Shown here piece by piece: positions 3,001 through 42,408 of a DNA stretch of 64,000 nucleotides. The notes beneath the pieces are model-generated. The model saw nothing but the letters and a program-made list of their open reading frames with translations. It was not told the DNA's origin and did no database searches. How positions within the stretch are numbered: position 1 is the stretch's first letter; the number at the start of each line of letters is the position of its first letter. Source of the DNA: a virus. A program made the translations under genes and the position numbers. The stretch is from positions 20,008 to 84,007 of the IMG/VR virus record IMGVR_UViG_3300028608_000011. One strand, given 5' to 3'.

Positions 3001-3693
3001 GGTGAGCAGCAGGCGGCTGTAGCAGCAAGCCAGGCCAAGTACACCGAGCAGATGGCGACCATGGCGATGATGTCGGCCATGGGCTCGCTGTCCAACATCC
3101 TCGGCACGTTCGCCAGCGCGGCAGAGGATGCCACAGCCGGCCAGAAGGCCGCGTTCATCGCACAGAAGGCGATCGCGATCGCCCAGATCATCATGTACAC
3201 CGAGCTGGCCGCTGCGCAGGCCATGGCGCTGTCGGGTAACCCGATGGTTGTTGGTATCCCTCTGGCTACCTTCATCCGCGCCACCGGTTATGCCAACGCC
3301 GGTTTGGTGGCTGCTCTGGCCATTGGTGAAGTTGCCAGCGGTGGCAAGTCCAGCAGCGGTAGCGGCACCACGATGTATGACACCGGAGGCTATATCCCGT
3401 ATAACCGAACCGGGATCGTCGGCGAATATGGCCCTGAGCTGGTAACCGGCCCAGCGCACGTTACAGGCCGAGGGAACAGCGCCTCGAAGATCAATCAGGC
3501 AGGCAGCGGCGGGAACGTCTACCAGATCACCTTGGCCCCGGTAATTTCCGTAGGAATGGATGGCGGTGCAGGCGATTCCAGCAAGGCCAGCCGAGAGGTT
3601 GCGGATACGGTGAAAACCGTAGTCATCCAAGTAATGCAAGAGCAGATCAGGCCTCAAGGGCTGCTGGATAACTGGATCAGATCAAGGGAATAA
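1..3693 (+). CDS. Tail tape measure protein (TP901-like), 5' truncated by window edge
   Basis: Frame open from base 1; Ala-rich helical protein with TP901-type core (LANSLSYAGPAAK..GIKGSRSGSALR); C-terminal YDTGGY..VGEYGPELV motif; precedes M/L/K/I/J. Confidence 0.93.
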   Translation: MGMAGLSANQALVALKPSLQLANLANVSMARSADISTNVLMTFGMQAKELQSVVDLMATAVNNSNADIEQLANSLSYAGPAAKTAGFSIQDTTAAIETMANSGIKGSRSGSALRRMFTSLLNPTKKGAEVIQKYGLDILDAEGNTRSLTNIINQMSNAFKDLPGPERLAAITNLVGVYASSAVTGLVDNASQYNQFAEQNQNVAGAGDRMEKIISDNLKFDWKEMLSSLEEVQLQAFSSLDGKLRLATAQMSKYVLDMMEPYKEGTDITGLDRLLVQAQTTAEAFARVVAGIVAYKFASGSVFAAFSADAKGAAERLTLVSDRLKSTSANYQIMGMATSVARTNTEMLNATIGRSVGIMGGVTAASATAAAGLARFAAAAGLVMRALGWVGLIYGIGSAIWEVFSTNTDDEVLKHRDSVDDVKSSYDKLKQSIEETGLARQRAALKEQIKADKQGSTDLSSQIAKQVNLINNARGAGVSEENLAPLEKRLESLRGLVGTYDQKVKDSEESLSKLGTTTNDYSTEADYQARRIEKLIGLTNDLTLAQAKLEQSQSRSGIGFSNLALAQNVGRLTQEKALAQRQVELGTGQLLRTQSNVRPFSETISSLEDDAKKAADAKVYKDVTSNAQQLLDVENKITEAKAAQAKLIQQDKDAIAAGNTDMRPGLQLAEVSVRTIAKLEADRAKIQEKVTDEENKLVEARQAAAAVTRSDTENMAAYQKQAADIAAKIKAAENPGDGKAMDVKAVTELYKDQAKVLGQIKGLESKSTKASDKAGRKDDRQASEDLRTYTALAKKFDEASYAQLELQKGTEAMQRLRAAGTITMDQENKALGELNLTHYKAILALDKEATALEKLRDSYANSPFGAAANDLAVLQKGLNDGKVSLEEFNRIYGQIRSKQLDQATSGLPEANLQVGDASSSPFTDWVSTEVERAKGLGEFDKRQKELETSLEIQQAANQRERDMQMEQLNAKKLAAEAHSTEMLRIEQTYQDQKSAIERTAGEQQAAVAASQAKYTEQMATMAMMSAMGSLSNILGTFASAAEDATAGQKAAFIAQKAIAIAQIIMYTELAAAQAMALSGNPMVVGIPLATFIRATGYANAGLVAALAIGEVASGGKSSSGSGTTMYDTGGYIPYNRTGIVGEYGPELVTGPAHVTGRGNSASKINQAGSGGNVYQITLAPVISVGMDGGAGDSSKASREVADTVKTVVIQVMQEQIRPQGLLDNWIRSRE

Positions 3694-4074: not shown

Positions 4075-4782
4075 ATGGAAATGATTGCAACGGACGCCCA
4101 GCGGCTGGTAAAGGAACCCAAAATCGTTCTCTTCGAGATCGACGCACGGGCCTACGGCGACACAGTGCTGCGCTTCACCCCAGTGGTAGATGGGAGTAAC
4201 TGGGATGTGCAGTTCGGGGGCAACATCTATCGCAGGCTGCCCATCACAGCATCCGGCTTTACATGGAATGGCACCGGGACGGCGCCGCGACCTTCGATCA
4301 GCCTGGCTGCGCAGGATCTGGTATTCCTCAGCCTGATCGTAAACGGCGATGACCTTATCGGCTGCCCTGTGCGCCGCATCCGAACCTACCGAAAATACCT
4401 CGACGACGGCGACAGCCCAAACCCTTCTGCGACTTTCCCGATCGACCATTTCGTCATTGAGAAAAAGACCAAACAGGTCAGGAAGCAGCTGTCGTTTGAA
4501 CTGTCCACGCCTATCGACCAACAGGGCAGGAAGATTCCTGCTCGACAAGTAATCCGCGATACCTGCCTCAACCGGTTCCGCTACTGGGCCAATGGCCGCT
4601 GGAACTATGACGGTGTGACCTGCCCATACGCTGGCGCAGCGATGTTCGAACCAAATGGCGATCCGACTTCAGACCCAACTAAAGCAAAGTGCGGTAAGCG
4701 ACTGAGCGACTGTGAAAAACATTTCGGTGTTGGCGCTGTGCTACCAATATTTGCCTTCCCCGGTGTCGGGCGGATAAGCTAG
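4075..4782 (+). CDS. Minor tail protein L (Fe-S tail tip protein)
   Basis: GTAPRPSI, RIRTYRKYLD, Cys cluster C..CPY..CGKRLSDC, FPG end. Confidence 0.92.
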   Translation: MEMIATDAQRLVKEPKIVLFEIDARAYGDTVLRFTPVVDGSNWDVQFGGNIYRRLPITASGFTWNGTGTAPRPSISLAAQDLVFLSLIVNGDDLIGCPVRRIRTYRKYLDDGDSPNPSATFPIDHFVIEKKTKQVRKQLSFELSTPIDQQGRKIPARQVIRDTCLNRFRYWANGRWNYDGVTCPYAGAAMFEPNGDPTSDPTKAKCGKRLSDCEKHFGVGAVLPIFAFPGVGRIS

Positions 4783-4802
4783 CGCAATCAGGGAGATTCA
4801 GC

Positions 4803-5540
4803 ATGCTTCAGTTCTATCCAGAACATCTCGAACAGATCCGCGCTGAGGCATTGGAAGCCTACCCAGAAGAAGGGGCTTGGCTCATCACCAAGGCCGGGTG
4901 TCGCCGAGTTCCTAACAACGCGGAAGACCCGGAGAATTTCTTCGACATCTCCCAAAGCGAGATCAAGAAAGCCCGAAAAGAAGGGCTTCTTGCCGTCGTG
5001 CATAGCCACACCAACGGCAATGAGTACCCCAGTGAAATGGACATGCAGTACCAGATCAACACGGCAGTGCCGTGGGGGCTTCTGGCCTGTGACGGCGTCA
5101 ACTCGACAGGCATCACCTGGTGGGGCGGGCGCGGCGAAGGCAACACCGAGGATCTGCTCAATCGCACGTTCTGCCACGGGGTTACCGATTGTTACGCGCT
5201 GGTGCGTGACTACTACGACCAGAAGTTCGATATCCAGCTGCCGGAGATGCCGCGCGAGTGGAAATGGTGGGAGACCAACGAGACGTTCATGCCTGACGGT
5301 CTCGAGCAAACAGGGTTCAGCCGTGTCCGAGATGAGCCGAAGCCCGGCGATATCTGGCTGGCCAGCATCGGTGTGCGCACCGGAGCGATCACCCATTGCG
5401 GAATCCTTCTGGAAGACGGCCTCACCATCCACCACCCGGGCAGCGGCGCCCCGGTCAGCCAGCGCAAGGCTGTGATCGAACCCATCTACCGTTACATCAG
5501 CATGATTTCAATGTGGGTAAGGCACAAGGATCGAGCATGA
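4803..5540 (+). CDS. Tail assembly protein K (JAB/MPN + NlpC/P60)
   Basis: YPEE, VHSH..PSEMD JAB motif; DCYALVRDYY and HCGI NlpC motifs. Confidence 0.92.
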   Translation: MLQFYPEHLEQIRAEALEAYPEEGAWLITKAGCRRVPNNAEDPENFFDISQSEIKKARKEGLLAVVHSHTNGNEYPSEMDMQYQINTAVPWGLLACDGVNSTGITWWGGRGEGNTEDLLNRTFCHGVTDCYALVRDYYDQKFDIQLPEMPREWKWWETNETFMPDGLEQTGFSRVRDEPKPGDIWLASIGVRTGAITHCGILLEDGLTIHHPGSGAPVSQRKAVIEPIYRYISMISMWVRHKDRA

Positions 5541-19346: not shown

Positions 19347-19523
19347 TTACATTGATTTGATGGCGTCAGCTACAGCCAAGGAAAGGGGATGAGGGTTGCG
19401 ATTGGTTCTAGTTATTGAACCAATCAGCTGCTCAAGCTTGGCCAGTTTGGCTTCAGACCACCCGCACTGTGCGAATTTATTGAACAGTGCGGGGTGATCT
19501 GTGGGCACCCAGCCCACGTTCAC
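19347..19523 (-). CDS. Small hypothetical protein (58 aa, MNVGWVPTDH...), not in the ORF track
   Basis: GTG start overlaps the TGA of the upstream MazG-like gene; fills the gap exactly. Confidence 0.45.
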   Translation of the reverse strand: MNVGWVPTDHPALFNKFAQCGWSEAKLAKLEQLIGSITRTNRNPHPLSLAVADAIKSM

Positions 19524-20116
19524 AGGGCCTCCATTGCAGCCATGTAATCGCCGAAGTCCTCGCCCTGGTGGTGCGTGTAGGACAACTTCTTGATGAACGC
19601 CTTCTGGATCGCTGCGTCCGCAGCCTGCGCCACTTCGGCGTCGACTTCCACGCCTTGGCCCAGCTCCGGCAAGTCAATGTCGATCAGCATGGCAGCTGCC
19701 TTGACGTCGAACAGCTCGCGGATCAGCGCCTGGCGATTGGTCTCTTGGCTGTGGCCATACGGGCTGACGCTTTCGAAGCCGTGGCGGAGGATCTTGCCGA
19801 TGACCTGCACCACCTCGCCGCACTCTTCCATCAGGATGGCCAGGCGCTCAGCCTGCGCCGGTGACAGCCCGTTGAAGTGGGCGTCGGCCAGCTGACCAAT
19901 CCACGGCGCTGGCTCCTCGCTCTGCGGCCGCAGGAACAGCTCAGCCTTGCCAGCTGCCCGCTCCAGACGCTCGATGTCACCCTCCGGCAGGATGCCTTTG
20001 CTGGACAGTGTGTCCACCTCGTCGATCAGCTCGTCGAGGATGTTGTCGACCTTGTCGACGGCGCCCGGAATGCCCTGAGCGATGTTGCAGTAACCGTTGA
20101 ATCGGAAATTATTCAT
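19520..20116 (-). CDS. MazG-like nucleotide pyrophosphohydrolase domain protein
   Basis: ILMEECGEVVQVIGKILRHG ... RELFDV (EExxE..ExxD). Confidence 0.7.
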   Translation of the reverse strand: MNNFRFNGYCNIAQGIPGAVDKVDNILDELIDEVDTLSSKGILPEGDIERLERAAGKAELFLRPQSEEPAPWIGQLADAHFNGLSPAQAERLAILMEECGEVVQVIGKILRHGFESVSPYGHSQETNRQALIRELFDVKAAAMLIDIDLPELGQGVEVDAEVAQAADAAIQKAFIKKLSYTHHQGEDFGDYMAAMEAL

Positions 20117-20852
20117 GAGTTTTCTCCGGTGCGGCGAGTAGTGGGTTGATGCGGCTTTCCAGCGCAAGCTTCAGGGCTTCAGGCGGCTGTCCGAAGAAGT
20201 CGTGCATACGCTGGCCGATGCCTTCGATGGACGCCTTGAACGCTGCACAGGCAGCCTCCGCTTCGGCACTCCACACGATGGTCTGCCCAGCGTGGAAGCG
20301 GTCGTTGCTGAAGTTGGTGGTGCTCAAAGTTTCCTTCTCGTGGTCATCGGCGTCTTCGACGATCTCCAGCTCGTACAGCTTGTTGTCCACCAGATAACGG
20401 ACGCCGTAGTGGAAGCCGAGCACGGGAATCTCTTGGAACGACGGCTGCCCTTTGGATACCGAACGACCATCTGCGTCACGGGCAACGTAGGCCACGGTAT
20501 AGGCGATGACCTTGACCCGCGAGGCATGCAGCACCCGCTCATAGAACTCGCGTCCAATCGCACGCAGCAACTTTTCCATGGTGTCCAGGCTGGACTTGGT
20601 GCGGACGAAGTAGGTGCCGGTCTTTGGGTCTCGGTCGATAGGCTCCTGCCGGAACAGCGGGATGTAGCTGCCGAAGAACTTGGCGTAGTGGTCAGGCATA
20701 GCTGCCACAAACGACGTGTCGCCGCGCGGGTCGAGGTAAATCGCTGTCTTGCCCTGAATGTAGTTAGGCTCTCGACCAATGCAGTCCTCGAAGTAGCCTA
20801 CGCCGACGTCCTTCAGCTTCTTGTACGGAGCTGGGAATGGCTTATGGCTCAT
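20109..20852 (-). CDS. Hypothetical protein
   Basis: 247-aa ORF overlapping both neighbours in the operon. Confidence 0.75.
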   Translation of the reverse strand: MSHKPFPAPYKKLKDVGVGYFEDCIGREPNYIQGKTAIYLDPRGDTSFVAAMPDHYAKFFGSYIPLFRQEPIDRDPKTGTYFVRTKSSLDTMEKLLRAIGREFYERVLHASRVKVIAYTVAYVARDADGRSVSKGQPSFQEIPVLGFHYGVRYLVDNKLYELEIVEDADDHEKETLSTTNFSNDRFHAGQTIVWSAEAEAACAAFKASIEGIGQRMHDFFGQPPEALKLALESRINPLLAAPEKTHE

Positions 20853-23830: not shown

Positions 23831-24397
23831 TCAGCCTTCCTTGAGCTGGTCGATCAACCCCATCAGGCTGATGTCGAAGTCGGTCAGCGACCCGTCGTTG
23901 ACGATGGTGTGGGTGATGTAGGAGCGAGCAATACCCTTCTCGCTGACATGCCCCTCAAGGCCTACGGCGGTCTTCACCTTCTCCACCAGGCTGTGGTGCT
24001 CCGGCCGGACGATCTCGATGATCACCCCGCCATTGAGCGTGATCCACTCCGCCTCGGAGTCGAATCGCACATCGCTGAGCACCATGCCGTCGATAGCCGG
24101 TAGGCTGTTGATCTCCTTCCAGCGCCTGGCCACCAGATTCACCCAGATCTGTGGGTTCATCAGCTCCCGGCCCCACTCGGTGCCGAGCGTCTGCATCATC
24201 ACCCGGTACGACTTGCAGGTTTCAGGGCAGATGTCCGAGCGATCGCCTTCGTGAAAGTGATCGCCGAAGACCGACTTCAGCATGGTCTTCAGCGGCTCCG
24301 CGAAAGCGTACTGACTGAGCGCCAGGTGTCGGGCCAGATAGCGCGCTGCGTGATCTTTACCCGACCTGGCCAGGCCGGTCACGCCGAGCAGCATCAC
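23831..24397 (-). CDS. Deoxynucleoside monophosphate kinase
   Basis: GLARSGKD, FAEPLK, MQTLGTEWGR, SDVRF, HVSE, NDG. Confidence 0.92.
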   Translation of the reverse strand: MMLLGVTGLARSGKDHAARYLARHLALSQYAFAEPLKTMLKSVFGDHFHEGDRSDICPETCKSYRVMMQTLGTEWGRELMNPQIWVNLVARRWKEINSLPAIDGMVLSDVRFDSEAEWITLNGGVIIEIVRPEHHSLVEKVKTAVGLEGHVSEKGIARSYITHTIVNDGSLTDFDISLMGLIDQLKEG

Positions 24398-25140: not shown

Positions 25141-25436
25141 TTGGCTTTCCTTTCTGCTGTGAAGAAGTCTTTGTGGATGGCCGGCCATTTACGGCGGAAC
25201 GCCTCAATCCGCCTAGCCATGAGTGACTCGTTGTGCTGGGAGTCAGCGAGCTGCTTGCGCAGCTCACGGACTTTTGCAGCGGTTTCCCGCAGGCGCTGGT
25301 TCTCCACCAGCAGTCGGGTGTTGTCGGCGAGCAGCTGATCAACATCAATCGGCTTGGCTGGTGCGGGATCCGGGAGGTTGAGAACAGCCTCCCGAAATTT
25401 TTCCCACCAGCCGCCCTTAGTCGGCGATGTTTTCAA
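25137..25436 (-). CDS. Hypothetical coiled-coil protein (start uncertain)
   Basis: Fills the gap between polA and the exonuclease; ATGA overlap at 3' end. Confidence 0.55.
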   Translation of the reverse strand: MKTSPTKGGWWEKFREAVLNLPDPAPAKPIDVDQLLADNTRLLVENQRLRETAAKVRELRKQLADSQHNESLMARRIEAFRRKWPAIHKDFFTAERKAK

Positions 25437-28400
25437 CCTCCACCTCTTCGTCTTCGTCGGCTTCGATGTAGGTGGCCTTGCGGATCGGATCGAACGGTTC
25501 CAGCACGTCCTTCTCCCAGATGTCGCGGCCTTCTTCCAGCGCCTCTGCGACAAATTTGGCCACGTTCTCTGGGCTGATGTCACGGCCCAGCTCCTGCACT
25601 CTACCCCAGTCACAGCCGATAGAAAACTCCGGTACTTGTCGAACTTTGTGCCCCGGAGGGGTTGACTCTTCCATGAACCGTCCGACCTCTTGGCAATACG
25701 CCAGAACGTCGTCCTTGTGTACCCACGACACGACTTCATCGTAGATCGGCGCGAAGAACACCATCCGCAGGCGATCCATGATCCCGCTGTCGGCGATCCG
25801 GGTCAGCACGATGCGCAACATCTGCGCGGCGCTGCCCTGGATGGTGGCGTTGGTGCCTTGGCGATGCTGCCGAGCGACCTTGCCGCCGTCGTTGCTGAAA
25901 ATGTCCGGCGTAGCGTGACGCTTGGTGCCGAACGCTGTCAGCGTGAAGCCGTTCTTCTCCATGAAGCGGGCTGTCTCTTCCTGCCACGGGCGGATCCGCC
26001 AGTACAGGGCCATGGTCTGCTCCAGCAGCTGTTTCGCTTCCTCGAATGGTGCGATGAGGTTGCGAGACAGGGTGCCAGCCCCGGCGCCGTAAGCCATGCC
26101 GAAGTTGATCGTCTTGGCCTTGCCGCGAATCGCCACCGCCAGCTTGTGCAGAGGGTGATCCTTGGTGTCCTTGGCCAGGCAGAACTCCATGTAGTCCATC
26201 TTCGCGATACCGGCGCCAGTCATACTGTGCAGGTCTTTCTCGTTGCCTGGTTCATACACCGACAGCATCACCGGGTCGTTGGCGAGGTTAGCCATGAGAC
26301 GGATCTCTTGGCCGTTGAAGTCGATCGCCACACACAAGTAGTCCTTGTTGGGTGGAATGTAGATCGACCGCATGACCTTGCCTTCGCCTTTCTTCGGCAC
26401 CTGCAGGCTGTTCGGCGCGCTCGCCGTTGGCCGGGTGGTGTCGGTGCCCGCGTCGGTAACGATCGGGTGAACGTTGCCGTCTCGGTGACGCCACATCGGG
26501 TACTTGTCGTGGAACAGGCTGCAGCGTGTGCTGGCCGACTTCACCACTCGCAGTACCTGCAGCGCTTCCCGTTGCCAGCAGTCGTTCGGCACATCGTTAG
26601 CCAGCGCGGTGAGGATCGCTTGCTCATCGGTGGATGGGCCTGCTTCCTTGATGCCGATGGACAGCCGACCTTTGCCTGGCGACTTGCCACGCAGCCGCAC
26701 CGGCACGCCAATCTTGCAATACAGCAGTTGCTGCATCTGTGCCGGGCTGCCCACGTTCAGTGGATCGCCGAACTGCACAGTCCGCGGCTCAACCCCGGCC
26801 AACCGCTGAATCAGCTCAGCCAGCTTGTCAAAAGTCTTTTCCGCGGCTTCCAGCTTGGCACCGTCGGTGTCTTCTGCCGACTCCGACTCTTCTGCTTTGC
26901 GACGTAGGTCACCCATTTTCAGGCAGCCGGCGTTCACCGCCGCGGCGATCATATCGACAACTTCGGCCTGCTCCTTGGTGAGTTTCCACTCATCGCGGAA
27001 GCCTGCCGCGCCCGCCGCGTCGAACCACTCGGTGATTGCTTTGAGCGTTACCTTCTCGATCTCAGGCAACCCCACCGCCTTGAAGGCCGGATTCAACTGC
27101 AGAGGCGTGAAGGCAAACGTCGGCATCACCGACTCTTCGCGGTACGGCGTGTACTGGCAGGCTGCTTCGACCTTCTTGCGCCACTCTGCGACCTTGGCCC
27201 CGGCCTGATCCACGTCACCATCAGCTTTCTTCTTGGCCGAGCGGAACATGTAGTCCTTCTCGGCTTCGATCAGCGACTTGGCGCCTTCCGTGATGTTGCC
27301 GGTGACGTTCTTCTCAAGGATCTCGCGAAGCTCGATCATGCCGACGCGGATGGTTTCCAGATCCTTGGTATGGATGCGCTTCTGCAGTGCCCAGTTCATG
27401 TTCGAACCAGCCACGTAGGCACGCTGCAGCACTTCGGTTGGGCGCACTGCCCACTGCTGGTAGAAGTCCCACTGCCCATCCAGTTGCAGCAACAGCTGCA
27501 GCAGGTCGTGCAGGTGGCCGGTCACCAGGCTGTCATCGGTGCCGTAGGTGAAGGTTTCATCGGCGGTCAGCTCGCACATCATCCGCACGCCTTGCCCACC
27601 GTTACCGGCGGCCAGCGTGTCGGCGAAGGAGGTCTGCTCGTAAGCCAGGTAGTTCAGCGAGATCGCCTTCAGGCCCGCTTCCATGTTTTCGTCGTAGAAC
27701 CGCTGCATCATCCGGGTGTCTTGGATGTTTTTCAGCCAGACACCGAGGTTGGTGTGCGAGACCACGCCTTCAAACAAGGCGTTGTGGGCGATCCGGGTAG
27801 TGTGCTCGCCGGCGAATTCCAGAATTTCCAGAATCACCGAGTTGTTCACGTTGGCGCTATCGCGGTGATCCACTGGAATGTAGATCACGTTCTCCAGATG
27901 TCGGCCGAACTGGAACGAGGCACCTGCCAGCTCCTGGCTGAGCATGTCGACGAAGTTGTTGCCCGCCTGAGACGCGCGGCGGAAGTCAGCGATCGGGTTC
28001 TTGTCCGAGGACTCATAGTCGAACGCGGTCTTGTCGCCTGCTTTGATCTCCTCGAAGATCGCCTCGCGCATCTCGGGCCAGTTGCTGGCGTCGACGATCA
28101 TCGGCACCGGCATCAGGTGGCTGTACTCAGCCTCCCACATATCCTCGCAGCCAACTTCCTTGAGGCAGTTGTACAGCTCGGTGGCGTTCGGCACGCGCTT
28201 GTGGATCTTCGGCTTGGTCAGCTTGCGCTGGCGAGGTTTCCAGCACAGGTCTGGCTTCAGGTTGGCCAGGCGCCAGCCCATCTTCCAGTCCGCGAAGTTC
28301 TCCTTCAACTTGATCAGGATCTTGTCGCCGGAGGCTTCAATGGTCTCGTCGAGCAGGTCGGTGTTGCCACTTTCGACGATCTCGCACAGCTGCTCCAGGC

Positions 28401-29073
28401 CGTCCACGTCGTACAGCTCCAGCAGCTTCAAGACTTTTGCCGGGCCGAGACCCGTCACGCCTTTATAGTTGTCGGAGTCGTCGCCCATGATTGACTTGGC
28501 GAAGCTGGTGAAGCGGTATGGCAGGCCCGCCAGCTTGTGCCCTTCGGGGTACACGCCGTCGGCGCCGTAGTGAGCCACGTTCTTCAGGGTGACGATGGTG
28601 TCACCGTCCACCAGCTGCAGCATGTCTTCGTCGACGGTGTGGATGTCCTTGGCACCCTTCACCATCTGGCAAACCCAGGCAATCAGGTCATCCGCTTCAA
28701 CGCCTTCAACGAACATCTGGGTCGCGCCCAGCGCCGAGAAGAAACGCTTGGCCCACGCCATCAGCAGTTTGTACTGCTCGATCTCGATGGGGCTTTTGTT
28801 CTCGTCCTTCTTTTCCTTCTGGCCTTTGTAGGCCGGGTAGAGCCCGAGTCGATAGGCTTTGCCTGCGTCGTGGGCAACCAGCATTTCACGCGGTGACGCG
28901 CCCTGTTCCAGCATTGGGCGGATGTAGCGGGTGAGGAAGTCGGCAGCCGCCGCTTCCCATTCCGCGAACTTGCGATCCAGCTTCACGCAGTGCAGGGTCT
29001 TGTCGCTGACCCCGTAATAAGCGTGTTTAACTGTGGCTCGGAAGTCGATGATTTGTAGAGGGTATTTGTTCAT
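25417..29073 (-). CDS. polA: DNA polymerase family A with fused 5'-3' exonuclease and 3'-5' exonuclease
   Basis: EADD and GDDSDNYKGVTGLG (5' nuclease); FDYES, HNALFE, YGTDD (proofreading); motif A DFNGQEIR, B KTINFGMAYG, C IYDE. Confidence 0.95.
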   Translation of the reverse strand: MNKYPLQIIDFRATVKHAYYGVSDKTLHCVKLDRKFAEWEAAAADFLTRYIRPMLEQGASPREMLVAHDAGKAYRLGLYPAYKGQKEKKDENKSPIEIEQYKLLMAWAKRFFSALGATQMFVEGVEADDLIAWVCQMVKGAKDIHTVDEDMLQLVDGDTIVTLKNVAHYGADGVYPEGHKLAGLPYRFTSFAKSIMGDDSDNYKGVTGLGPAKVLKLLELYDVDGLEQLCEIVESGNTDLLDETIEASGDKILIKLKENFADWKMGWRLANLKPDLCWKPRQRKLTKPKIHKRVPNATELYNCLKEVGCEDMWEAEYSHLMPVPMIVDASNWPEMREAIFEEIKAGDKTAFDYESSDKNPIADFRRASQAGNNFVDMLSQELAGASFQFGRHLENVIYIPVDHRDSANVNNSVILEILEFAGEHTTRIAHNALFEGVVSHTNLGVWLKNIQDTRMMQRFYDENMEAGLKAISLNYLAYEQTSFADTLAAGNGGQGVRMMCELTADETFTYGTDDSLVTGHLHDLLQLLLQLDGQWDFYQQWAVRPTEVLQRAYVAGSNMNWALQKRIHTKDLETIRVGMIELREILEKNVTGNITEGAKSLIEAEKDYMFRSAKKKADGDVDQAGAKVAEWRKKVEAACQYTPYREESVMPTFAFTPLQLNPAFKAVGLPEIEKVTLKAITEWFDAAGAAGFRDEWKLTKEQAEVVDMIAAAVNAGCLKMGDLRRKAEESESAEDTDGAKLEAAEKTFDKLAELIQRLAGVEPRTVQFGDPLNVGSPAQMQQLLYCKIGVPVRLRGKSPGKGRLSIGIKEAGPSTDEQAILTALANDVPNDCWQREALQVLRVVKSASTRCSLFHDKYPMWRHRDGNVHPIVTDAGTDTTRPTASAPNSLQVPKKGEGKVMRSIYIPPNKDYLCVAIDFNGQEIRLMANLANDPVMLSVYEPGNEKDLHSMTGAGIAKMDYMEFCLAKDTKDHPLHKLAVAIRGKAKTINFGMAYGAGAGTLSRNLIAPFEEAKQLLEQTMALYWRIRPWQEETARFMEKNGFTLTAFGTKRHATPDIFSNDGGKVARQHRQGTNATIQGSAAQMLRIVLTRIADSGIMDRLRMVFFAPIYDEVVSWVHKDDVLAYCQEVGRFMEESTPPGHKVRQVPEFSIGCDWGRVQELGRDISPENVAKFVAEALEEGRDIWEKDVLEPFDPIRKATYIEADEDEEVEVENIAD

Positions 29074-29075
29074 GG

Positions 29076-29351
29076 TCACTCCTGAATGAAGAGGGCGTGC
29101 AGTACGGACCCTCCCCCTTGGAGCTGGCACGTACCCAGGTTGCAGTAGTTCTTGCTTGGGTCGAGGTCTTCGCCGGTTACCGCGACATAGATTTCGGCTG
29201 GGACAGTGCGCTGTGTATCGTCTACCAGTGTCCACAGCTGCAACGGCTCCACTTGCCCTGCCTGATGCTGAACTGTGGTATCAGCCGACAGGCCGCCGGG
29301 GACGTGGATAACATTCATGCCTACATTCAGACCGTACTTGAGCATCTTCAT
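29076..29351 (-). CDS. Conserved phage hypothetical protein
   Basis: Q..LW..VD..TG..LGT.Q..GG.V.H pattern; GGAGG RBS. Confidence 0.7.
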   Translation of the reverse strand: MKMLKYGLNVGMNVIHVPGGLSADTTVQHQAGQVEPLQLWTLVDDTQRTVPAEIYVAVTGEDLDPSKNYCNLGTCQLQGGGSVLHALFIQE

Positions 29352-29353
29352 GG

Positions 29354-29962
29354 TCAAACCTCCGGGAACGCTTTGAAAATAATCTGCAGGCACTGCGCCT
29401 GATAGCGGGCATCATCCAGCGCATCATGGGCGACACCGCCTTCCCGATCCGGCATGTACAGCCCGCGGGACTCTGCGAACTCCACAAGCGTGCGCTGGTC
29501 ACGAACTTTACGAAACGAGTAGGGGACAGCGATACCCTCTCGCTTGTGTGCCTCTTCCAGCCACACGCTGTCACGGTCACCTCGTATCCACAGCTCACCG
29601 GTGAAGTTTGAGTTTCGGCCAATCGGCGTGGTGTCAGCCTGCAGCCATTGCCAGAGGGCGCGAAGGGCGTTGCCGAGGCTGATCCCGCCCTTTCCTTCCA
29701 GCGCAACTTGCTGCGTATTCCGGCTCTGTTCCAGCCACCAGTAGAAAGTGCTTGGGTCTATCGGTGCCTGGCCTTCCAGATTCACCGCGACATGGAACTC
29801 GTTGCTCACTCCCGCAGGCGGCCCAGCCAGTACCTGATTGGAGGGGTTGGGCGAGAAGCGCACCGCGCCGATCGCAATGATCGGCGCGGCAGGCCCGAGG
29901 CCCGCAGTTTCCAGGTCAATCGACACCGGGTATTCAGCGATGCTCTCGTAGTACATCGTCAC
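29354..29962 (-). CDS. DEDDh 3'-5' exonuclease (Exo VIII N-terminal / Rv2179c-like)
   Basis: IDLETAG, IGAV, STFYWW, RDQRT, HDALDDARYQA. Confidence 0.85.
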   Translation of the reverse strand: MTMYYESIAEYPVSIDLETAGLGPAAPIIAIGAVRFSPNPSNQVLAGPPAGVSNEFHVAVNLEGQAPIDPSTFYWWLEQSRNTQQVALEGKGGISLGNALRALWQWLQADTTPIGRNSNFTGELWIRGDRDSVWLEEAHKREGIAVPYSFRKVRDQRTLVEFAESRGLYMPDREGGVAHDALDDARYQAQCLQIIFKAFPEV

Positions 29963-30648
29963 TCTCCTGTCAGGGCGTTCCAGCTGTACGGGAAGAGGCT
30001 CTGCATGATCGGGCCGATCTCGCTGAACAGATCGTTCACTTCGCCCTGAGCGTGAGAGTCGGTGCGTTTGGCGTAGGCCGCGGCGTAGGCGTAAAGGCTG
30101 CCAGTCCAGTACCAGTTCACTTCGCAGCCCTGCGGAAGGGCGAAGCGGGCCTGCTCAGGCGCCACGCCCTGCTTCACCAGATCCTCGTAGAACTTGATCA
30201 TGTCCTCGCAGCGTTGTTTGTACGCCAGAAGCAGGGCAGTGCTGTCAGGGTGAGGCCCAGCACTGCCCTGTTTGACCTTGTCACCATCGGGAGCCAGGCG
30301 GAACTCTTTTGGCACAAACAACACCGGGCGATCGCTGATGTAGCGGCGGCTTTCTTCGTTCTCGACGAAGCCGACCTTGTGCTTGAAGCACTGGGTACGG
30401 ATCGGCACCGGCGCCGACATTTTCAGGGTGATCGAGGTGTGCGCGAATGGCGTCCAGTGGCCGTGCTTGGCTAGGTAGTTGATCAGCGCCTCGTGGGAGC
30501 GAACTTTCACGCCCTGCTCAACCGACAAAGCTTCTGCTACCGCTTCGGTCAGGAACATCTGCACCGAATCGTCGTTGGCGAAGCTGACCTTGGCAGCGCG
30601 GACAACCGACAGGTCGTTGCCCATGTGGTCGATATATTCTGCTTTCAT
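29959..30648 (-). CDS. thyX: Flavin-dependent thymidylate synthase
   Basis: VVRAAKVS, HWTPF, KHKVGFVENEESRRY, PEQARFALP, HAQ.E. Confidence 0.93.
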   Translation of the reverse strand: MKAEYIDHMGNDLSVVRAAKVSFANDDSVQMFLTEAVAEALSVEQGVKVRSHEALINYLAKHGHWTPFAHTSITLKMSAPVPIRTQCFKHKVGFVENEESRRYISDRPVLFVPKEFRLAPDGDKVKQGSAGPHPDSTALLLAYKQRCEDMIKFYEDLVKQGVAPEQARFALPQGCEVNWYWTGSLYAYAAAYAKRTDSHAQGEVNDLFSEIGPIMQSLFPYSWNALTGE

Positions 30649-31274: not shown

Positions 31275-31919
31275 TTACTGACCCTCCGATTTGTCAGCGC
31301 GAGCCTGCGCGGCTTCGTCGCTGTAGCCGTTCTTGTAGCGCTTGCCCAGCAGCTTCACCTTGTTGGCCAGCTGCGCTTCGCCCAGGCTGGTTTGAATGCC
31401 GTTCAGCAGGCCCACGATGTAGAAAGTAGCATCGCCCGCTTCCTCGCGGACGTTCTCGCCGTCCAGCTCAGCGCCGAGGACGTGGCTGACCACCTGCTCG
31501 AGCATTTCAGCAGCTTCACCGGCCAGGCCTACCGCCATATGCAGCATGTGCATTTTTTCCGGGGTCAGGCCTTCGAAGGCTTCGCCCAGGCCTTGGCTAC
31601 TCGGCAACTTGAACGATTCAGGGTCTGCGCCATCGACCGGAGGTTTGTTGTAGACGATGACTTTCTTGGCGGCGTCGAGCTGATTGCCCTTGTTGACGAT
31701 GGCGGTACACAGGGTCAACAGCTGCAGAAAACCGGTGAACTTCAGGGTGTCCAGCATCGCTTGGCCGGGCTTTGCCAGCTCTCGCACCATGCCAGAGAAG
31801 CTGTGTTCAGCGATGCGCTGGCGGTTCTCTTCCGGGATATCGGAAAGGATCGCCGCGTTGCGCTCTTGAGAGAGTTGTTCGAAGGTTGAGGCCAAAGCTT
31901 GGTTGACTGGCTGGTTCAT
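31275..31919 (-). CDS. MazG-like NTP pyrophosphohydrolase
   Basis: HMAVGLAGEAAE, EEAGD..FY, N..KL..RY..GYS. Confidence 0.85.
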   Translation of the reverse strand: MNQPVNQALASTFEQLSQERNAAILSDIPEENRQRIAEHSFSGMVRELAKPGQAMLDTLKFTGFLQLLTLCTAIVNKGNQLDAAKKVIVYNKPPVDGADPESFKLPSSQGLGEAFEGLTPEKMHMLHMAVGLAGEAAEMLEQVVSHVLGAELDGENVREEAGDATFYIVGLLNGIQTSLGEAQLANKVKLLGKRYKNGYSDEAAQARADKSEGQ

Positions 31920-31942
31920 AGGTCTGTCTCGAAAATTTTTGA

Positions 31943-31975
31943 ATAAAAAGCCCGGCAGGATCACCGGCCGGGCTT
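31943..31975 (-). terminator. Rho-independent terminator after the SSB-like gene
   Basis: AGCCCGGC-N10-GCCGGGCT-TTTTA on - strand. Confidence 0.8.
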
Positions 31976-38102: not shown

Positions 38103-39431
38103 CTACGCGGTGAACCCGAACTTGTTGATGATCAATTCCTCTTGTGGCCGACTGAACGCCACGTACAAAAGCCGCTGCCGTTCACTGCGGACTGGGTTGT
38201 CCAGCAGATCCTTGACATCGACCATGACACGCTTGAAGGTGCTGCCCTGGCTGCGGTGGACGGTGATGCAGTAGCAGTATTTCAGATCCGCAAACAGGTC
38301 TTTGAACTGGTGAAGCGTCTTCCAATGATAGCCTGCGTTTCCGCCGCTCTTGCTGGCCTTCTTGGCTTTTTCAGCCAGCTCATTGGTGTAGCGCTGGTAA
38401 CGCTCGTATTCGTCCTCGTGAAGGACATGAGCGAAGACCTGGCGTGCATCAGCATACACAGGATTCAGGGTTACCAGCCACGTCTTCCACTTCTCGCTGG
38501 TCTGCTCATCGAACATGGTGCTCTCGCGCACCGAGGCGACCAGCGACTCTTCGTCAGTGGACAGCTCGACTTCGCCGCCCTTGGTGATCGGGCTGCCGGT
38601 TACCAGCCGCTCGCCGATCTCAAATCGCGCGGCCTTATCGCCGTAAATCTTGGCGCGAATGGCCTTGTTGATGTCGTCAACGCGGTAGTTACGCCAGGCC
38701 AGCACCCGGACATCTTCCAGATCGGTGTTCAGGTCGAACTCGGCGACCACCGCCTGCAGGAAGTCGGCAGCCTTGAGCACACGCACGTTGTGATCCGGGA
38801 TCACGTCGAACTTGAACGCGCGGTTTTCCTTGATCGCCTCGCGCAGCGGGTGGGTCAGCTGCAGGATCCCGTTGGCGGTGCCGTCAGGGTTGTTCTTCTG
38901 GCGCTCAACTTGGGTCAGCTCGCTGGTAGGGTAAAGCCCGAAAGCCTTGGAGTCCTTCTCCTTGACCGGAGGCAGCTGCATGTTGTCGCCCATCAGCAGG
39001 CAGAACACGCCGCAGTTTTCCAGCTCTGGCACCATGTAATCGAACAGGAAGGTCTCGCCGAGCATCGACGCTTCGTCGCAGACCACCATGTTGTAATCGC
39101 CGATGACGCTGTCACGCACCTGAGCGGCGTACTTGCGTTCATCGGTCGGCATCAGCGACAAGCCCAGCGCGCTGTGCGCGGTCTTGAAGCCGATCTTGTC
39201 CATCGGTAGGCCGTACTTGCGGGCTGCTTTCTCAAGCTGCTTCACCGCCTTGTTGGTCGGCGCTACGAAAAGAATCTTCAGTCCCCCGTCGAGGAGGATC
39301 ACTGCGACTTCCATCACAGAAAACGTCTTGCCGGTGCCGCCTTCGCCGATGATGGTGTAGCCCTTGCCGCCATTCTCATAAGCGTCAAGAGCTTTGTTTA
39401 CGGCAATGGCTTGGCCACTGTTCAGCTGCAT
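38103..39431 (-). CDS. dda: Dda/RecD-like superfamily 1B helicase
   Basis: GEGGTGKT, APTNKA, DEASM, GD..QLPPV, TVHRSQGST, YVAFSR. Confidence 0.92.
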   Translation of the reverse strand: MQLNSGQAIAVNKALDAYENGGKGYTIIGEGGTGKTFSVMEVAVILLDGGLKILFVAPTNKAVKQLEKAARKYGLPMDKIGFKTAHSALGLSLMPTDERKYAAQVRDSVIGDYNMVVCDEASMLGETFLFDYMVPELENCGVFCLLMGDNMQLPPVKEKDSKAFGLYPTSELTQVERQKNNPDGTANGILQLTHPLREAIKENRAFKFDVIPDHNVRVLKAADFLQAVVAEFDLNTDLEDVRVLAWRNYRVDDINKAIRAKIYGDKAARFEIGERLVTGSPITKGGEVELSTDEESLVASVRESTMFDEQTSEKWKTWLVTLNPVYADARQVFAHVLHEDEYERYQRYTNELAEKAKKASKSGGNAGYHWKTLHQFKDLFADLKYCYCITVHRSQGSTFKRVMVDVKDLLDNPVRSERQRLLYVAFSRPQEELIINKFGFTA

Positions 39432-39471: not shown

Positions 39472-39500
39472 ACGATAATGAACCGTGCCCTCCCGGTCAA
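39472..39500 (-). promoter_or_regulatory. Sigma70 promoter upstream of dda
   Basis: TTGACC-N17-TATCGT, followed by AT-rich palindrome TATAAATTTATA (39444-39455). Confidence 0.55.
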
Positions 39501-39823
39501 GCGTTCTTTTTGAAGATGCTCACCACGTTGGGTGAATCCGGTAACGCCTGCTTGATGATCGGCCGTGAAGTGCCGAGGGGATGGAACAGGTAGATCACCT
39601 GCTCCAGGCTGTCAGCCAGACTAAGGCCTTCGCTGTAGCCCTGGATGAACGCGACATACGCCGGCCGGAGCTGCTCAGCGCTGAAAGAGTTGATGCCCTG
39701 CTCCGTGAGGCTGTACTTCAGCCCCTCGAAGAATTTATCAATCCAGCGCGTCTGCTGCTCCGTTGTGCCTATGTCGCCGAGCCCCTTGCCGATCATCAAC
39801 AGCTCAGTCTTCAGTTGTTCCAC
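39497..39823 (-). CDS. Hypothetical protein
   Basis: GTG start with AGGAG RBS (alternative TTG at 39850). Confidence 0.7.
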   Translation of the reverse strand: MEQLKTELLMIGKGLGDIGTTEQQTRWIDKFFEGLKYSLTEQGINSFSAEQLRPAYVAFIQGYSEGLSLADSLEQVIYLFHPLGTSRPIIKQALPDSPNVVSIFKKNA

Positions 39824-39860
39824 GCCTTCTCCTTCCTGGCCTGTGGCCAAGTGTTTCTGG

Positions 39861-40670
39861 TTAGTCAGGGATGCCTGTCAGCAGTAGGGCACTGGCACGC
39901 TGCACCAGCTTTGGATCCGCCAGCTGCTTGACGTTGGGCTTGCGCTCGAGGAACTCAGCCGGCAGGTATTGCACCGCGTCAGGGAACTGGGCTTCCAGGT
40001 GCTTCAGGGTGCGAATCGGTGCGAGGATCTTGGTCAGGTCTTCGTACAGTTCGCCGGCAGCGGTGATCACCGCGAAGTACGCCTGCATCAGCCGGTCTGC
40101 CTGAACGCTAAGGGAATAGGCTTCAACGGAGTAGGGCAGGCGGTACTGATCGTCCTTCTTCACCTCGACTTCTGGGTGAAATATTTTGCCCAGGCCCGGG
40201 ATGCTGGGGAGATCCGCGTGGCTGCACTTCCAGCTGTAGTGGAAGTCGTAGCTACCGGTGTACTTGTTTGTGAAGTTGAGGAAGCTGCTCCACTCCTGCT
40301 CCACGGCTTCACGCACCAGCTGCCATTTCTGCATATCTTTTTCGCGTATTTTGCAGACTCCCCGGCCTTCGTAACTGAGGCCGACCTTGCCCACCGCCGT
40401 GCTCTCGGTGGTGTTGAACTTGTCGTTCGGCTTGACCGTTATGACGTCGATGTTGCCCTTCAGGCTGCTGAAGATGCCGTCCTGAATCAACGGGGCCCAG
40501 CGGCTCTGTGGCACCTCGGGGATCTTCAGCGAGATCTGCTTGGCGAACAGCTGGCGCCAGAGTTTGTCCAGCGCTCGAGCGGCCTTGGTGGTGCTGGCTG
40601 CCTGGCGCTTGGAGGCTTGACGCAGCAATGACACGATCAGGTCGCGTTTGACTTCGTTGGTGATGTTCAT
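39861..40670 (-). CDS. Nmad5-like (nucleotide modification associated domain 5) protein
   Basis: N-terminal ITNEVKRDLI and C-terminal IRTLKHLEAQFPDAVQYLP motifs. Confidence 0.7.
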   Translation of the reverse strand: MNITNEVKRDLIVSLLRQASKRQAASTTKAARALDKLWRQLFAKQISLKIPEVPQSRWAPLIQDGIFSSLKGNIDVITVKPNDKFNTTESTAVGKVGLSYEGRGVCKIREKDMQKWQLVREAVEQEWSSFLNFTNKYTGSYDFHYSWKCSHADLPSIPGLGKIFHPEVEVKKDDQYRLPYSVEAYSLSVQADRLMQAYFAVITAAGELYEDLTKILAPIRTLKHLEAQFPDAVQYLPAEFLERKPNVKQLADPKLVQRASALLLTGIPD

Positions 40671-41032
40671 GCTTTACCGCCGTAAATGTTGTTGAAGTGT
40701 TTGAGGATGAGCGGGTACAGCGCTCCGGGTTCTTCGATCTCCAGATCCTTGCGAATCTGTTCGCACTCGGCCTCTGTCCAGATGGCCATGAGTGCGGCCT
40801 CGCTCGGCACCTCCCACATGGCGCCGGGCGTGTAGAGCATCGTGAAGTTCAACGTCTTCCCTACGTTGCTGCGCTGTCGCTTGCAGACCTTGCTGTAGGG
40901 TAGGCCGAGGATCACAGCCGCCGTGATGGTGTGGATGTCCAGCAGCTTTGACGATTTGTACAGCTCCCCGGAGCTGGCCAGCCGCCGCTCGATAGCGGCG
41001 TAATCGACTTCGTGTTGGATCGGCTTGATCAT
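40667..41032 (-). CDS. Mini-protein comprising PolA motif A and fingers/O-helix (motif B) only
   Basis: DYAAIERRLA...DIHTITAAVILGLP..V..QR..GKTLNFTMLY aligns by eye with Pol I DYSQIELR...[29 protein letters not shown]. Confidence 0.75.
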   Translation of the reverse strand: MIKPIQHEVDYAAIERRLASSGELYKSSKLLDIHTITAAVILGLPYSKVCKRQRSNVGKTLNFTMLYTPGAMWEVPSEAALMAIWTEAECEQIRKDLEIEEPGALYPLILKHFNNIYGGKA

Positions 41033-41460
41033 TTATGGGCCTCGGGGTCTTTGATGTGCTTGTCGAACAATTTCTTGTGACGACGAGCAAAGCGGGCGGT
41101 GTGGGCGATGGCATACAACAGGGCCAGCGACAGCACGATAGGGTAAAAATTTACGGTGACGCAGATAGCCATCGGAATAGCCCCGACAACTACACACGAT
41201 CGCGCAAGCAGGTCGGCGCCGCGAATATCCTCCTTGCCTTCCTTCTGGAATCGCTCGTAGGAGTCGCTGTACTCGTAGCCGCACAGCGTGCCGATCAACG
41301 TCATCATCGGCCATGGGCCTTCAGGCTTGCGGTCATCTACCCATAACAGCGCGGTTTTCACCGCCTCTGTGGCTGCCGAGAGGGTGAAGAACAGCGCGGC
41401 CATTGCCACGCCCATCAGGATCATGGCGAGGAACATTCTTTCCGGTGGTAGATCAGTCAC
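41029..41460 (-). CDS. Membrane protein
   Basis: 2-3 hydrophobic segments, basic C-terminus; overlaps both neighbours. Confidence 0.7.
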   Translation of the reverse strand: MTDLPPERMFLAMILMGVAMAALFFTLSAATEAVKTALLWVDDRKPEGPWPMMTLIGTLCGYEYSDSYERFQKEGKEDIRGADLLARSCVVVGAIPMAICVTVNFYPIVLSLALLYAIAHTARFARRHKKLFDKHIKDPEAHK

Positions 41461-41879
41461 TTTAGGTACTCCTTTCTGATTCGCCGAAGCGAGGTTGCAT
41501 GGCTCAAGCCCTTCCAGGCGTAGAGCCTGGCCGAGCCGTCTGCCAAGAAGTGGATCTGCTCCGTCCAGCTGTAGGTGTAGGCACCTGACAGGCTCAGCGA
41601 CTGGTCGGCACGTTTGGCCAGCGCCAGACGAGTTTCTTCGCCGGTGCCGGCCGCAAACAGTTCGAATATTCCGCGCTGCGCCGCGGGGGTCAGCATCACG
41701 GAGCAAAAGCGCGGGTCTTTGGCAAATTCAAGCAGCTGGTCGTAGGGGATGAACTTCTCCTTTTCCCAGCGCTTTATGAATTTTTCCAATGCCTTGCGTG
41801 AACTTCTTGTAGCTGTTTCAAGCAGCGACTGGCCCGGACGTGCCGGCCAGGTAGGCTGCAATATCGTGTTGACGTCCAC
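41457..41879 (-). CDS. Hypothetical protein (start uncertain)
   Basis: GTG start with GAGGAG RBS; coupled downstream. Confidence 0.6.
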   Translation of the reverse strand: MDVNTILQPTWPARPGQSLLETATRSSRKALEKFIKRWEKEKFIPYDQLLEFAKDPRFCSVMLTPAAQRGIFELFAAGTGEETRLALAKRADQSLSLSGAYTYSWTEQIHFLADGSARLYAWKGLSHATSLRRIRKEYLK

Positions 41880-42408
41880 GCTCTTGCTCCTCGGTGCGGT
41901 TCGGTACGAAGACCCAGGCCTGCACAAAGCAGCCCTGTTCGATCGGCATGACTTCAGGGTTGGCGTCCAGCACCACGATGTCGGAAGCCGCTTTGGCAAT
42001 TTCCTTGGCCCGCTCCCTCGCATCCGCCATCTTCAGCCGGTTGCGCATCACTTCAGCGTTGACCTTGAGCAGTTTGCTGAGAGGGTATTGCTGGCCGATG
42101 ACCAGCAGCAGTTCAAGATCTTGCTCGCTCAAGCCCTCCATCGGCTTGGTGCCCTTCTCGAAGAAGCGGATCAGCTCGGCCCGCCAGTATTTAGGCGACA
42201 GCTGCATGCACTTCATCAGCACCAGACACTGCTCCACTGACAGCTCGCCGTGCTTCGTCAACGGGACGACTCGAAAACCGGCGTCCTTGTCGGTGTTTAC
42301 GCGCAGCTCTGCGTAGAGCTGCGCCTCTTCCTCGGAGCTGAACTTGCCGCCCGGAGACCAGTAGCCTTTACGGCGCCACTGGATTTGATGGGTGAAAGCA
42401 CAGCTCAT
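41818..42408 (-). CDS. Hypothetical protein
   Basis: ATGA coupling to upstream gene. Confidence 0.7.
   Translation of the reverse strand: MSCAFTHQIQWRRKGYWSPGGKFSSEEEAQLYAELRVNTDKDAGFRVVPLTKHGELSVEQCLVLMKCMQLSPKYWRAELIRFFEKGTKPMEGLSEQDLELLLVIGQQYPLSKLLKVNAEVMRNRLKMADARERAKEIAKAASDIVVLDANPEVMPIEQGCFVQAWVFVPNRTEEQERGRQHDIAAYLAGTSGPVAA

Follow-up and report, generated by a model that had tools for sequence, protein, structure and literature searches.

A short phage protein family derived from the fingers of Pol I-type DNA polymerases, encoded at a variable site within the replication module

The fingers of DNA polymerases are, to our knowledge, known only within whole enzymes. Why, then, should a phage that encodes a complete family-A polymerase also carry a separate gene that reads as a fingers segment and stops after it? 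The gene in question, a 121-amino-acid (aa) open reading frame (ORF) that we call the mini-fingers gene, lies in a 64,000-nucleotide stretch (the window) of IMG/VR record IMGVR_UViG_3300028608_000011, positions 20,008 to 84,007. The record is an 84-kb phage sequence, 96% complete, and the window takes up its right-hand 64 kb. The phage is related to the Pseudomonas phages Lana and PMBT3, with ~76% DNA identity over parts of the region. They are also the only cultured phages found to carry the gene (Lana gp58 and PMBT3 AUM59663, both annotated as hypothetical), and the searchable literature yielded no account of this gene or of any free-standing fingers protein of family A. An earlier note, made by eye from the DNA alone, had proposed that the ORF descends from polymerase fingers and is tied to a neighboring Nmad5-like gene. 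The mini-fingers gene is a genuine, independently translated accessory gene. It encodes the exapted fingers of a Pol I-type family-A polymerase, namely a motif A strand with the helices as far as the O-helix, and behind them a helical tail particular to the family.

The polymerase origin is carried by sequence profiles, and on these the family makes a stronger case than the single sequence. Against PF00476 the mini-fingers protein scores 24.1 bits (E 2e-5) over profile positions 157–222 of 381, below the gathering score of 34.3 bits, and 21.8 bits in the genome scan; searched singly with phmmer, it matches Klenow marginally (E 0.018). A profile built from 19 members of the family finds Klenow at E 2.1e-12, aligning to chain positions 378–444 (equivalent to Pol I 702–768), and reaches an hhalign probability of 99.5% (E 4e-22) against an alignment of 38 PolA segments. 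Mini-fingers proteins score 115–165 bits with this profile over their full length. Full-length polymerases score 36–58 bits and align to profile positions 7–74 only, the stretch between motif A and the O-helix with both included. Judged by these profiles, the first ~70 residues are homologous to family-A polymerases from motif A through the O-helix, which bears out the proposed origin. The protein covers only about one-sixth of the PF00476 model, and its 121 residues contain neither motif C (HDE, bearing the second catalytic Asp) nor any further part of the palm, nor a thumb or exonuclease. Because it has no motif C Asp, no thumb, and no exonuclease, it cannot polymerize, and the earlier statement to that effect holds.

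Residue by residue, the HMMER alignment pairs D10, E15, H34, R54, K59, F63, and Y67 with D705, E710, H734, R754, K758, F762, and Y766 of Pol I. The equivalents listed by the earlier note are thus retained, and its one-residue offset at R754 reflects one extra residue between R54 and K59. In Pol I, H734, R754, and K758 contact the triphosphate of the incoming deoxynucleoside triphosphate (dNTP), F762 stacks on the sugar, and Y766 stacks on the template base; D705 and the motif C aspartate together hold the catalytic metals. Across the wide family, D32, H34, A39, V49, R54, K59, and Y67 are invariant, Q53 and P76 are nearly so, and the F762-equivalent position is always aromatic. All 27 close homologues keep D10 and E15, which several distant members have lost; the motif A Asp is invariant only in the Lana-like clade and is lost also in the metagenomic locus L013. 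Since the H/R/K/Y set is invariant and the motif A Asp is lost in some members, the family has conserved the residues that grip the ligand but not the one that serves catalysis.

Conservation peaks in the "DIH" helix, where L30–T37 and A39 are invariant in the close-homologue alignment A1. The inserted residue of the O-helix region (residues 53–60, 40850–40876) varies among close relatives: The window, Lana, and P0023 read QRSNVGK, and PMBT3 reads QRRVGK. PMBT3, P0027, and all distant members lack it, and the distant members show the canonical R-to-K spacing. Beyond the O-helix, the C-terminal half has conserved residues of its own (W73, P76, L81, I84, W85, E89, L105, Y106, and F113) and no PolA match in hmmsearch, in which PolAs align to the profile positions given above. 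Its last ~50 residues are weakly colinear, at low confidence, with the PolA helices that follow the O-helix; a by-eye match of its "LY..I...F" to the PolA "YF..YPGV" found no support beyond that colinearity.

Predicted structure agrees with a fingers origin, but the fold evidence is weak, and the homology case rests on the profiles. The AlphaFold2 (AF2) model is all-helical, with a mean predicted local distance difference test score (pLDDT) of 71.8; its N-terminal 25 residues are poorly ordered, and the motif A remnant (residues 10–17) has low model confidence. In a Foldseek comparison, a check suggested with the original proposal, all top matches were family-A polymerases, but at E ≥ 0.3, and the superposition was weak. 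VIA ranked E. coli Pol I first (8oo6_A; Z 2.2, root-mean-square deviation 3.4 Å over 50 residues), with model residues 18–69 aligned on Pol I residues 715–767. A structural search of the ESM Atlas returned PolA clusters at template modeling (TM) scores of ~0.36–0.58, which we treat as weak leads.

The mini-fingers family comprises at least 45 short phage proteins of 99–155 aa. The 27 close homologues span 119–129 aa without truncations, and a HMMER search of 1.8 billion representatives added ~20 more distant ones, nearly all of 99–155 aa. Every homologue seen is intact, free of frameshifts and stops, and close in length to the others. A metagenome scan added one further locus, L013; IMG/VR gave no matches when scanned with P0064, P0071, or P0079, three distant members used singly, and a scan of reference genomes returned full-length cellular Pol I only. 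Crude Nei–Gojobori (NG86) estimates across eight loci gave ratios of nonsynonymous to synonymous substitution (dN/dS) of 0.28–0.6 in most pairs, about equal to those of the downstream Nmad5-family gene (0.34–0.6 in most pairs) and roughly twice those of the Dda-like helicase (median 0.25 at the same saturation). All of these values are overestimates because dS is near saturation in GC-rich DNA. By these estimates, the gene is under purifying selection, with a constraint roughly half that on the helicase. With dN/dS well below 1 and no truncation among the close homologues, the earlier description of the gene as intact is supported.

The phage's own polymerase is not the recent source. Only two PF00476 matches occur in the whole genome, this gene and a complete PolA, which at 1272 aa, with a fused 5′ nuclease, is itself unusually long. 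Because one of the two matches is a full PolA, the mini-fingers protein is not a piece of a split polymerase. The two proteins share 26% identity over 61 aa with a 13-residue gap; the gap reflects an insertion between the DLH motif and the O-helix of PolA that the mini-fingers protein lacks. At E 1e-3 the family profile finds no match to this PolA, and it matches cellular and phage Pol I-type enzymes at the scores given above. On sequence comparison, then, the gene is not a recent copy of its own PolA and is nearer to cellular Pol I, and the earlier exclusion of a local duplication stands on both the profile result and the differing insertion.

The ORF is real as first quoted, and it overlaps both neighbors by ATGA (Table 1). 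It belongs to a minus-strand run of genes in which no convincing minus-strand promoter or terminator was found between genes. At the junction with the Nmad5-family gene, ATGA is kept in seven related loci (including L006, L007, L009, and L010), and TGATG replaces it in the eighth, L013; the translational coupling that the earlier note described is therefore conserved. Within the Lana/PMBT3-like clade the two genes are always adjacent with the ATGA overlap; L013 is much more distant.

The pair nonetheless comes apart in both directions. L073, on an 83.7-kb record that is 96% complete, encodes an Nmad5-family protein 75% identical to that of the window, and there the membrane-protein and Nmad5-family genes abut at a single ATGA (2990–3010). 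Compared with the window, L073/G002 lacks exactly the 363 nucleotides of the mini-fingers ORF, a clean presence/absence difference bounded by ATGA, and the gene is absent elsewhere in the 96%-complete L073 genome. Nmad5-like genes also occur without a mini-fingers gene in UAntarctica, KPP25, and phCDa; the upstream UAntarctica gene uan_103 was considered as a diverged copy and rejected (hhalign probability 0.2%). Conversely, in L030, a complete 91.6-kb phage with terminal repeats, the mini-fingers domain forms the C-terminal half of a 237-aa protein (4617–5330), and no Nmad5-like gene is present anywhere in that genome. The N-terminal ~125 aa of the L030 fusion contain two weak helix-turn-helix (HTH)-like motifs, and P0066 and P0070 are likewise HTH fusions, of 236–237 aa, with weak HTH_38 and Sigma70_r4 matches. 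In L013 (2118–2672) the HTH region is a separate, overlapping upstream ORF, an instance of gene fusion or fission.

The locus is thus a variable slot within a conserved replication module, lying between a conserved small gene and a Dda-like helicase. It holds a membrane protein, the mini-fingers gene, and the Nmad5-family gene in the window and PMBT3; the latter two in Lana; HTH, mini-fingers, and Nmad5 genes in L013; an HTH–mini-fingers fusion without Nmad5 in L030; and Nmad5 alone in L073 and UAntarctica. Because the mini-fingers and Nmad5 genes are separable both ways and the slot is variably filled, we regard the mini-fingers gene as an accessory, dispensable cassette. The same separations, together with the lack of base-hypermodification genes among the ORFs scanned, speak against the obligate functional tie to Nmad5 that had been suggested. 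The small membrane protein of the slot is homologous to PMBT3 AUM59664 (E ~1e-26) and to L073 2570–3004, and is absent in Lana; it has a strongly conserved basic C terminus, AIAHTARFARRHKKLFD.H.KDP. Elsewhere in the module, the PMBT3 homologue of the 962-aa primase-like protein is annotated "RNA polymerase-binding transcription factor."

Table 1. Features of the mini-fingers locus, its surroundings, and related loci (window positions unless a locus is named)
Feature	Positions	Strand	Basis or remark
Mini-fingers gene, 121 aa	40667–41032	minus	ORF; PF00476 and family profile vs. Klenow
Motif A remnant, residues 10–17 DYAAIERR (D705, E710, R712 equivalents)	40982–41005	minus	HMMER alignment to Klenow
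"DIH" helix, residues 30–39 LLDIHTITAA (D732/H734 equivalents)	40916–40945	minus	most conserved block of the family
O-helix/motif B equivalent, residues 53–67 QRSNVGKTLNFTMLY	40832–40876	minus	Klenow alignment; one inserted residue
Family-specific helical C-terminal half, residues 68–121	40670–40831	minus	conserved within the family
ATGA	40667–40670	minus	TGA of mini-fingers gene overlaps ATG of 269-aa Nmad5-family gene
ATGA	41029–41032	minus	TGA of upstream membrane-protein gene overlaps ATG of mini-fingers gene
Nmad5-family protein, 269 aa; gene carries polymerase label	39861–40670	minus	ORF; transitive homology to PF18757
Nmad5-family gene carrying polymerase label, L001	6348–7151		
Nmad5-family gene carrying polymerase label, L004	3989–4750		
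Small membrane protein, ~135–143 aa, two hydrophobic segments	41029–41460	minus	start GTG 41460 or ATG 41436
Small conserved gene	41457–42023	minus	in run of overlapping genes
Acidic protein, 117 aa, conserved between variable slot and helicase	39497–39850	minus	homologue in L013, L030
Dda-like superfamily 1 (SF1) helicase, conserved anchor of replication module	38103–39431	minus	Pfam AAA_30/UvrD_C_2; phrog_325 E 2e-92
81-aa ORF	listed between Dda-like helicase and primase-like protein	minus	same minus-strand run
Primase-like protein, 962 aa	34940–37828	minus	PHROG "primase" family E 1e-60; no Pfam family
Complete PolA, 1272 aa (5′ nuclease + 3′–5′ exonuclease + polymerase)	25417–29235	minus	PF00476 E 2e-50; both exonuclease domains
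NTP (nucleoside triphosphate) pyrophosphohydrolase	19520–20167	minus	
dNMP (deoxynucleoside monophosphate) kinase	23831–24397	minus	
ThyX	29959–30648	minus	
MazG-like pyrophosphatase	31275–31964	minus	

The downstream neighbor was assigned through its family. The window's 269-aa protein has no match to PF18757 even at E 10, yet 21 of the 33 members of its family match at E ≤ 1, and homologues 56–64% identical to it score 27.1–30.9 bits against a cut-off of 27 bits, with more distant ones reaching up to 33.3 bits (KPP25; L013, 30.4). By transitive homology it is a divergent Nmad5-family member; the earlier "Nmad5-like" label holds at the level of the family, several of whose members pass the cut-off, while the window copy taken by itself stays below it. 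The protein is basic, with an isoelectric point (pI) of 9.1, and the Nmad5-family alignment contains no invariant acidic or His residues. Its AF2 model (pLDDT 85) has no informative fold match in the PDB: The best structural rows are generic helical bundles (Z ~5), and the ESM Atlas gave weak leads only, consistent with Nmad5.

This gene carries a polymerase name. It is called "DNA polymerase" or "DNA polymerase A" in PMBT3, RefSeq Lana, KPP25, phiR18, and phrog_15487, the last of which the window protein matches at E 7e-53. Pfam, the PDB sequence profile, Foldseek, and exhaustive VIA all found no polymerase similarity in the 269-aa protein, and we rejected on the same grounds the idea that it supplies the missing palm and thumb of a split polymerase. 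From these searches the name looks like a propagated misannotation, while the polymerase-derived gene beside it is called hypothetical.

Nmad5 is a predicted domain. In M6-like phages, its genes lie near polymerase and modification genes (PMC9476957), the latter comprising a hydroxymethylase, an aGPT-Pplase, and a kinase. Here, by contrast, the ORFs scanned include an ordinary ThyX as thymidylate synthase, alongside a dNMP kinase, a large C5 methyltransferase, and a pair of MazG-like pyrophosphatases; neither a pyrimidine hydroxymethylase nor an aGPT-Pplase was found among those ORFs, which show no sign of thymidine hypermodification; and the window copy of Nmad5 itself falls below the family threshold. 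In Dhillonvirus, a K-to-E point mutation in nmad5 was found in escapers of the Tmn defense, yet the gene is deletable (PMC11846954). In an attempt to place the Tmn-escape lysine on the 269-aa protein, HK578 gp04 and gp06 gave no Nmad5 match.

As to function, the earlier note had proposed a sensor, sponge, or decoy; the reading that we favor, at a probability of about 0.35, is that the mini-fingers protein would be a noncatalytic receptor for an NTP- or pyrophosphate-like ligand, held by the retained H/R/K/aromatic face. We infer this role because the triphosphate-gripping and stacking residues are invariant and the metal-binding motif A Asp is not kept everywhere. Such a receptor would either sequester its ligand, acting as a sponge, or signal its presence to another protein part. 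In some phages the recipient of the signal would be the fused HTH domain, an arrangement laid out like a one-component regulator; in the window phage it could be the basic Nmad5-family protein translated alongside. A dispensable, lineage-variable function is typical of host-interaction or counter-defense genes rather than core replication. A bolder form of this proposal is tentative at best: The fingers would have become a plug-in NTP-receptor module, used alone, with Nmad5, or fused to HTH, and serving as a sponge for a triphosphate-bearing immune signal or unwanted dNTPs, or as a dNTP-pool sensor of gene expression. Several points weigh against a receptor. A rigid Pol I-like triphosphate site would not easily tolerate the variable R–K spacing; the retained polymerase residues could instead serve folding, DNA contact, or mimicry; the Foldseek deviation of 10–12 Å means that the helices do not superpose globally on Klenow fingers; the isolated model is moderately confident only; and genomic context was compared for only a minority of the distant mini-fingers proteins (P0064–P0084).

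There are competing accounts. If the protein acted as a decoy or mimic of polymerase fingers, titrating a host factor or defense system or interfering with host Pol I, binding of a ligand would play no part; its patchy, dispensable distribution, typical of counter-defense genes, its small size and place in an early/replication operon, and its closer resemblance to cellular Pol I-type fingers than to its own PolA would all fit. We consider this unlikely, given that PADLOC gave no meaningful match and no other defense-related similarity was found, that the invariant surface is the inward-facing nucleotide site and not obviously an exposed epitope, and that the HTH-fused forms are hard to account for; moreover, we know of no defense system that targets a polymerase-fingers surface. 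Improbable, too, is a DNA-binding accessory of replication or transcription that would place the O-helix/Y766 face on single-stranded template and help an HTH or basic partner. HTH-like fusions, the position in a replication module beside helicase and primase, and the basic pI of the Nmad5-family neighbor point that way, but the mini-fingers protein itself is neutral (pI 6.8), polymerases contact DNA mostly through the thumb and palm that it lacks, and the close relative L073 dispenses with the gene.

The tight gene pairing raises a further account, in which the mini-fingers protein would be a dedicated subunit of the Nmad5-family protein and provide the nucleotide-binding site of a two-protein machine acting on nucleotides or DNA. 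Adjacency and a 4-nucleotide (or 1-nucleotide) overlap persist in eight loci spanning 26–75% Nmad5 identity, and the poorly ordered N-terminal 25 residues contain an orphan motif A strand. That reading nevertheless seems quite doubtful to us: Nmad5-family genes do without it in L073 (at 75% identity), UAntarctica, KPP25, and phCDa, a complete 91.6-kb genome has it without any Nmad5, the Nmad5-family alignment lacks invariant acidic or His residues that would suggest catalysis, and no modification genes were found nearby. Least probable by far is a decaying relic of an old polymerase gene, retained through the translationally coupled operon. The sub-gathering Pfam score, the traceless loss in a close relative, and evolution about twice as fast as the helicase are what such decay might leave; this account is largely refuted by at least 45 intact homologues of near-constant length without frameshifts or stops, by a block of 8 invariant residues and by functional residues that do not vary even at an overall identity of 30–50%, by dN/dS well below 1, by the added, conserved C-terminal half, and by the independent fusion to an HTH domain.

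Set beside known systems, the mini-fingers protein most resembles the fingers of bacterial Pol I (Klenow, Bst, and KlenTaq) in its sequence from motif A to the O-helix, in the H734/R754/K758/F762/Y766 set, and in helical content. It differs in being free-standing, in the extra R–K residue of one subclade, in its own C-terminal half, and in poor predicted superposition. Split family-A polymerase genes ("DNA polymerase I / II," as in Bacillus phages) are often interrupted by introns or homing-endonuclease genes, and split-polymerase records of phages were present among our tblastn matches. They too have a PolA segment as its own ORF, but their pieces sum to one working enzyme, whereas the phage studied here has a complete PolA and its mini-fingers gene belongs to a conserved short-protein family of its own. 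Tad1, Tad2, and Acb2 are small phage nucleotide sponges that bind cyclic or ADP-ribose (ADPR)-type immune signals; the mini-fingers protein is like them as a small, nonenzymatic accessory phage protein, an analogy that would concern mechanism only, as there is no sequence or fold relation.

What is new is a short-protein family derived from a very well-known domain, and a conserved fingers-only family would be a clear case of the substrate-gripping part of an enzyme reused as an independent module. For annotation, the name "DNA polymerase (A)" appears to sit on the wrong target in the Nmad5-family gene, and the polymerase-derived gene is the one beside it. The natural pair with and without the gene (the window phage and L073), together with the cultured carriers Lana and PMBT3, makes the proposed function directly testable. 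If the mini-fingers protein binds nucleotides, it would bring a further, new fold to the few phage proteins that bind or sense nucleotides, and it would provide a handle on the unexplained Nmad5 family, which is genetically tied to Tmn escape.

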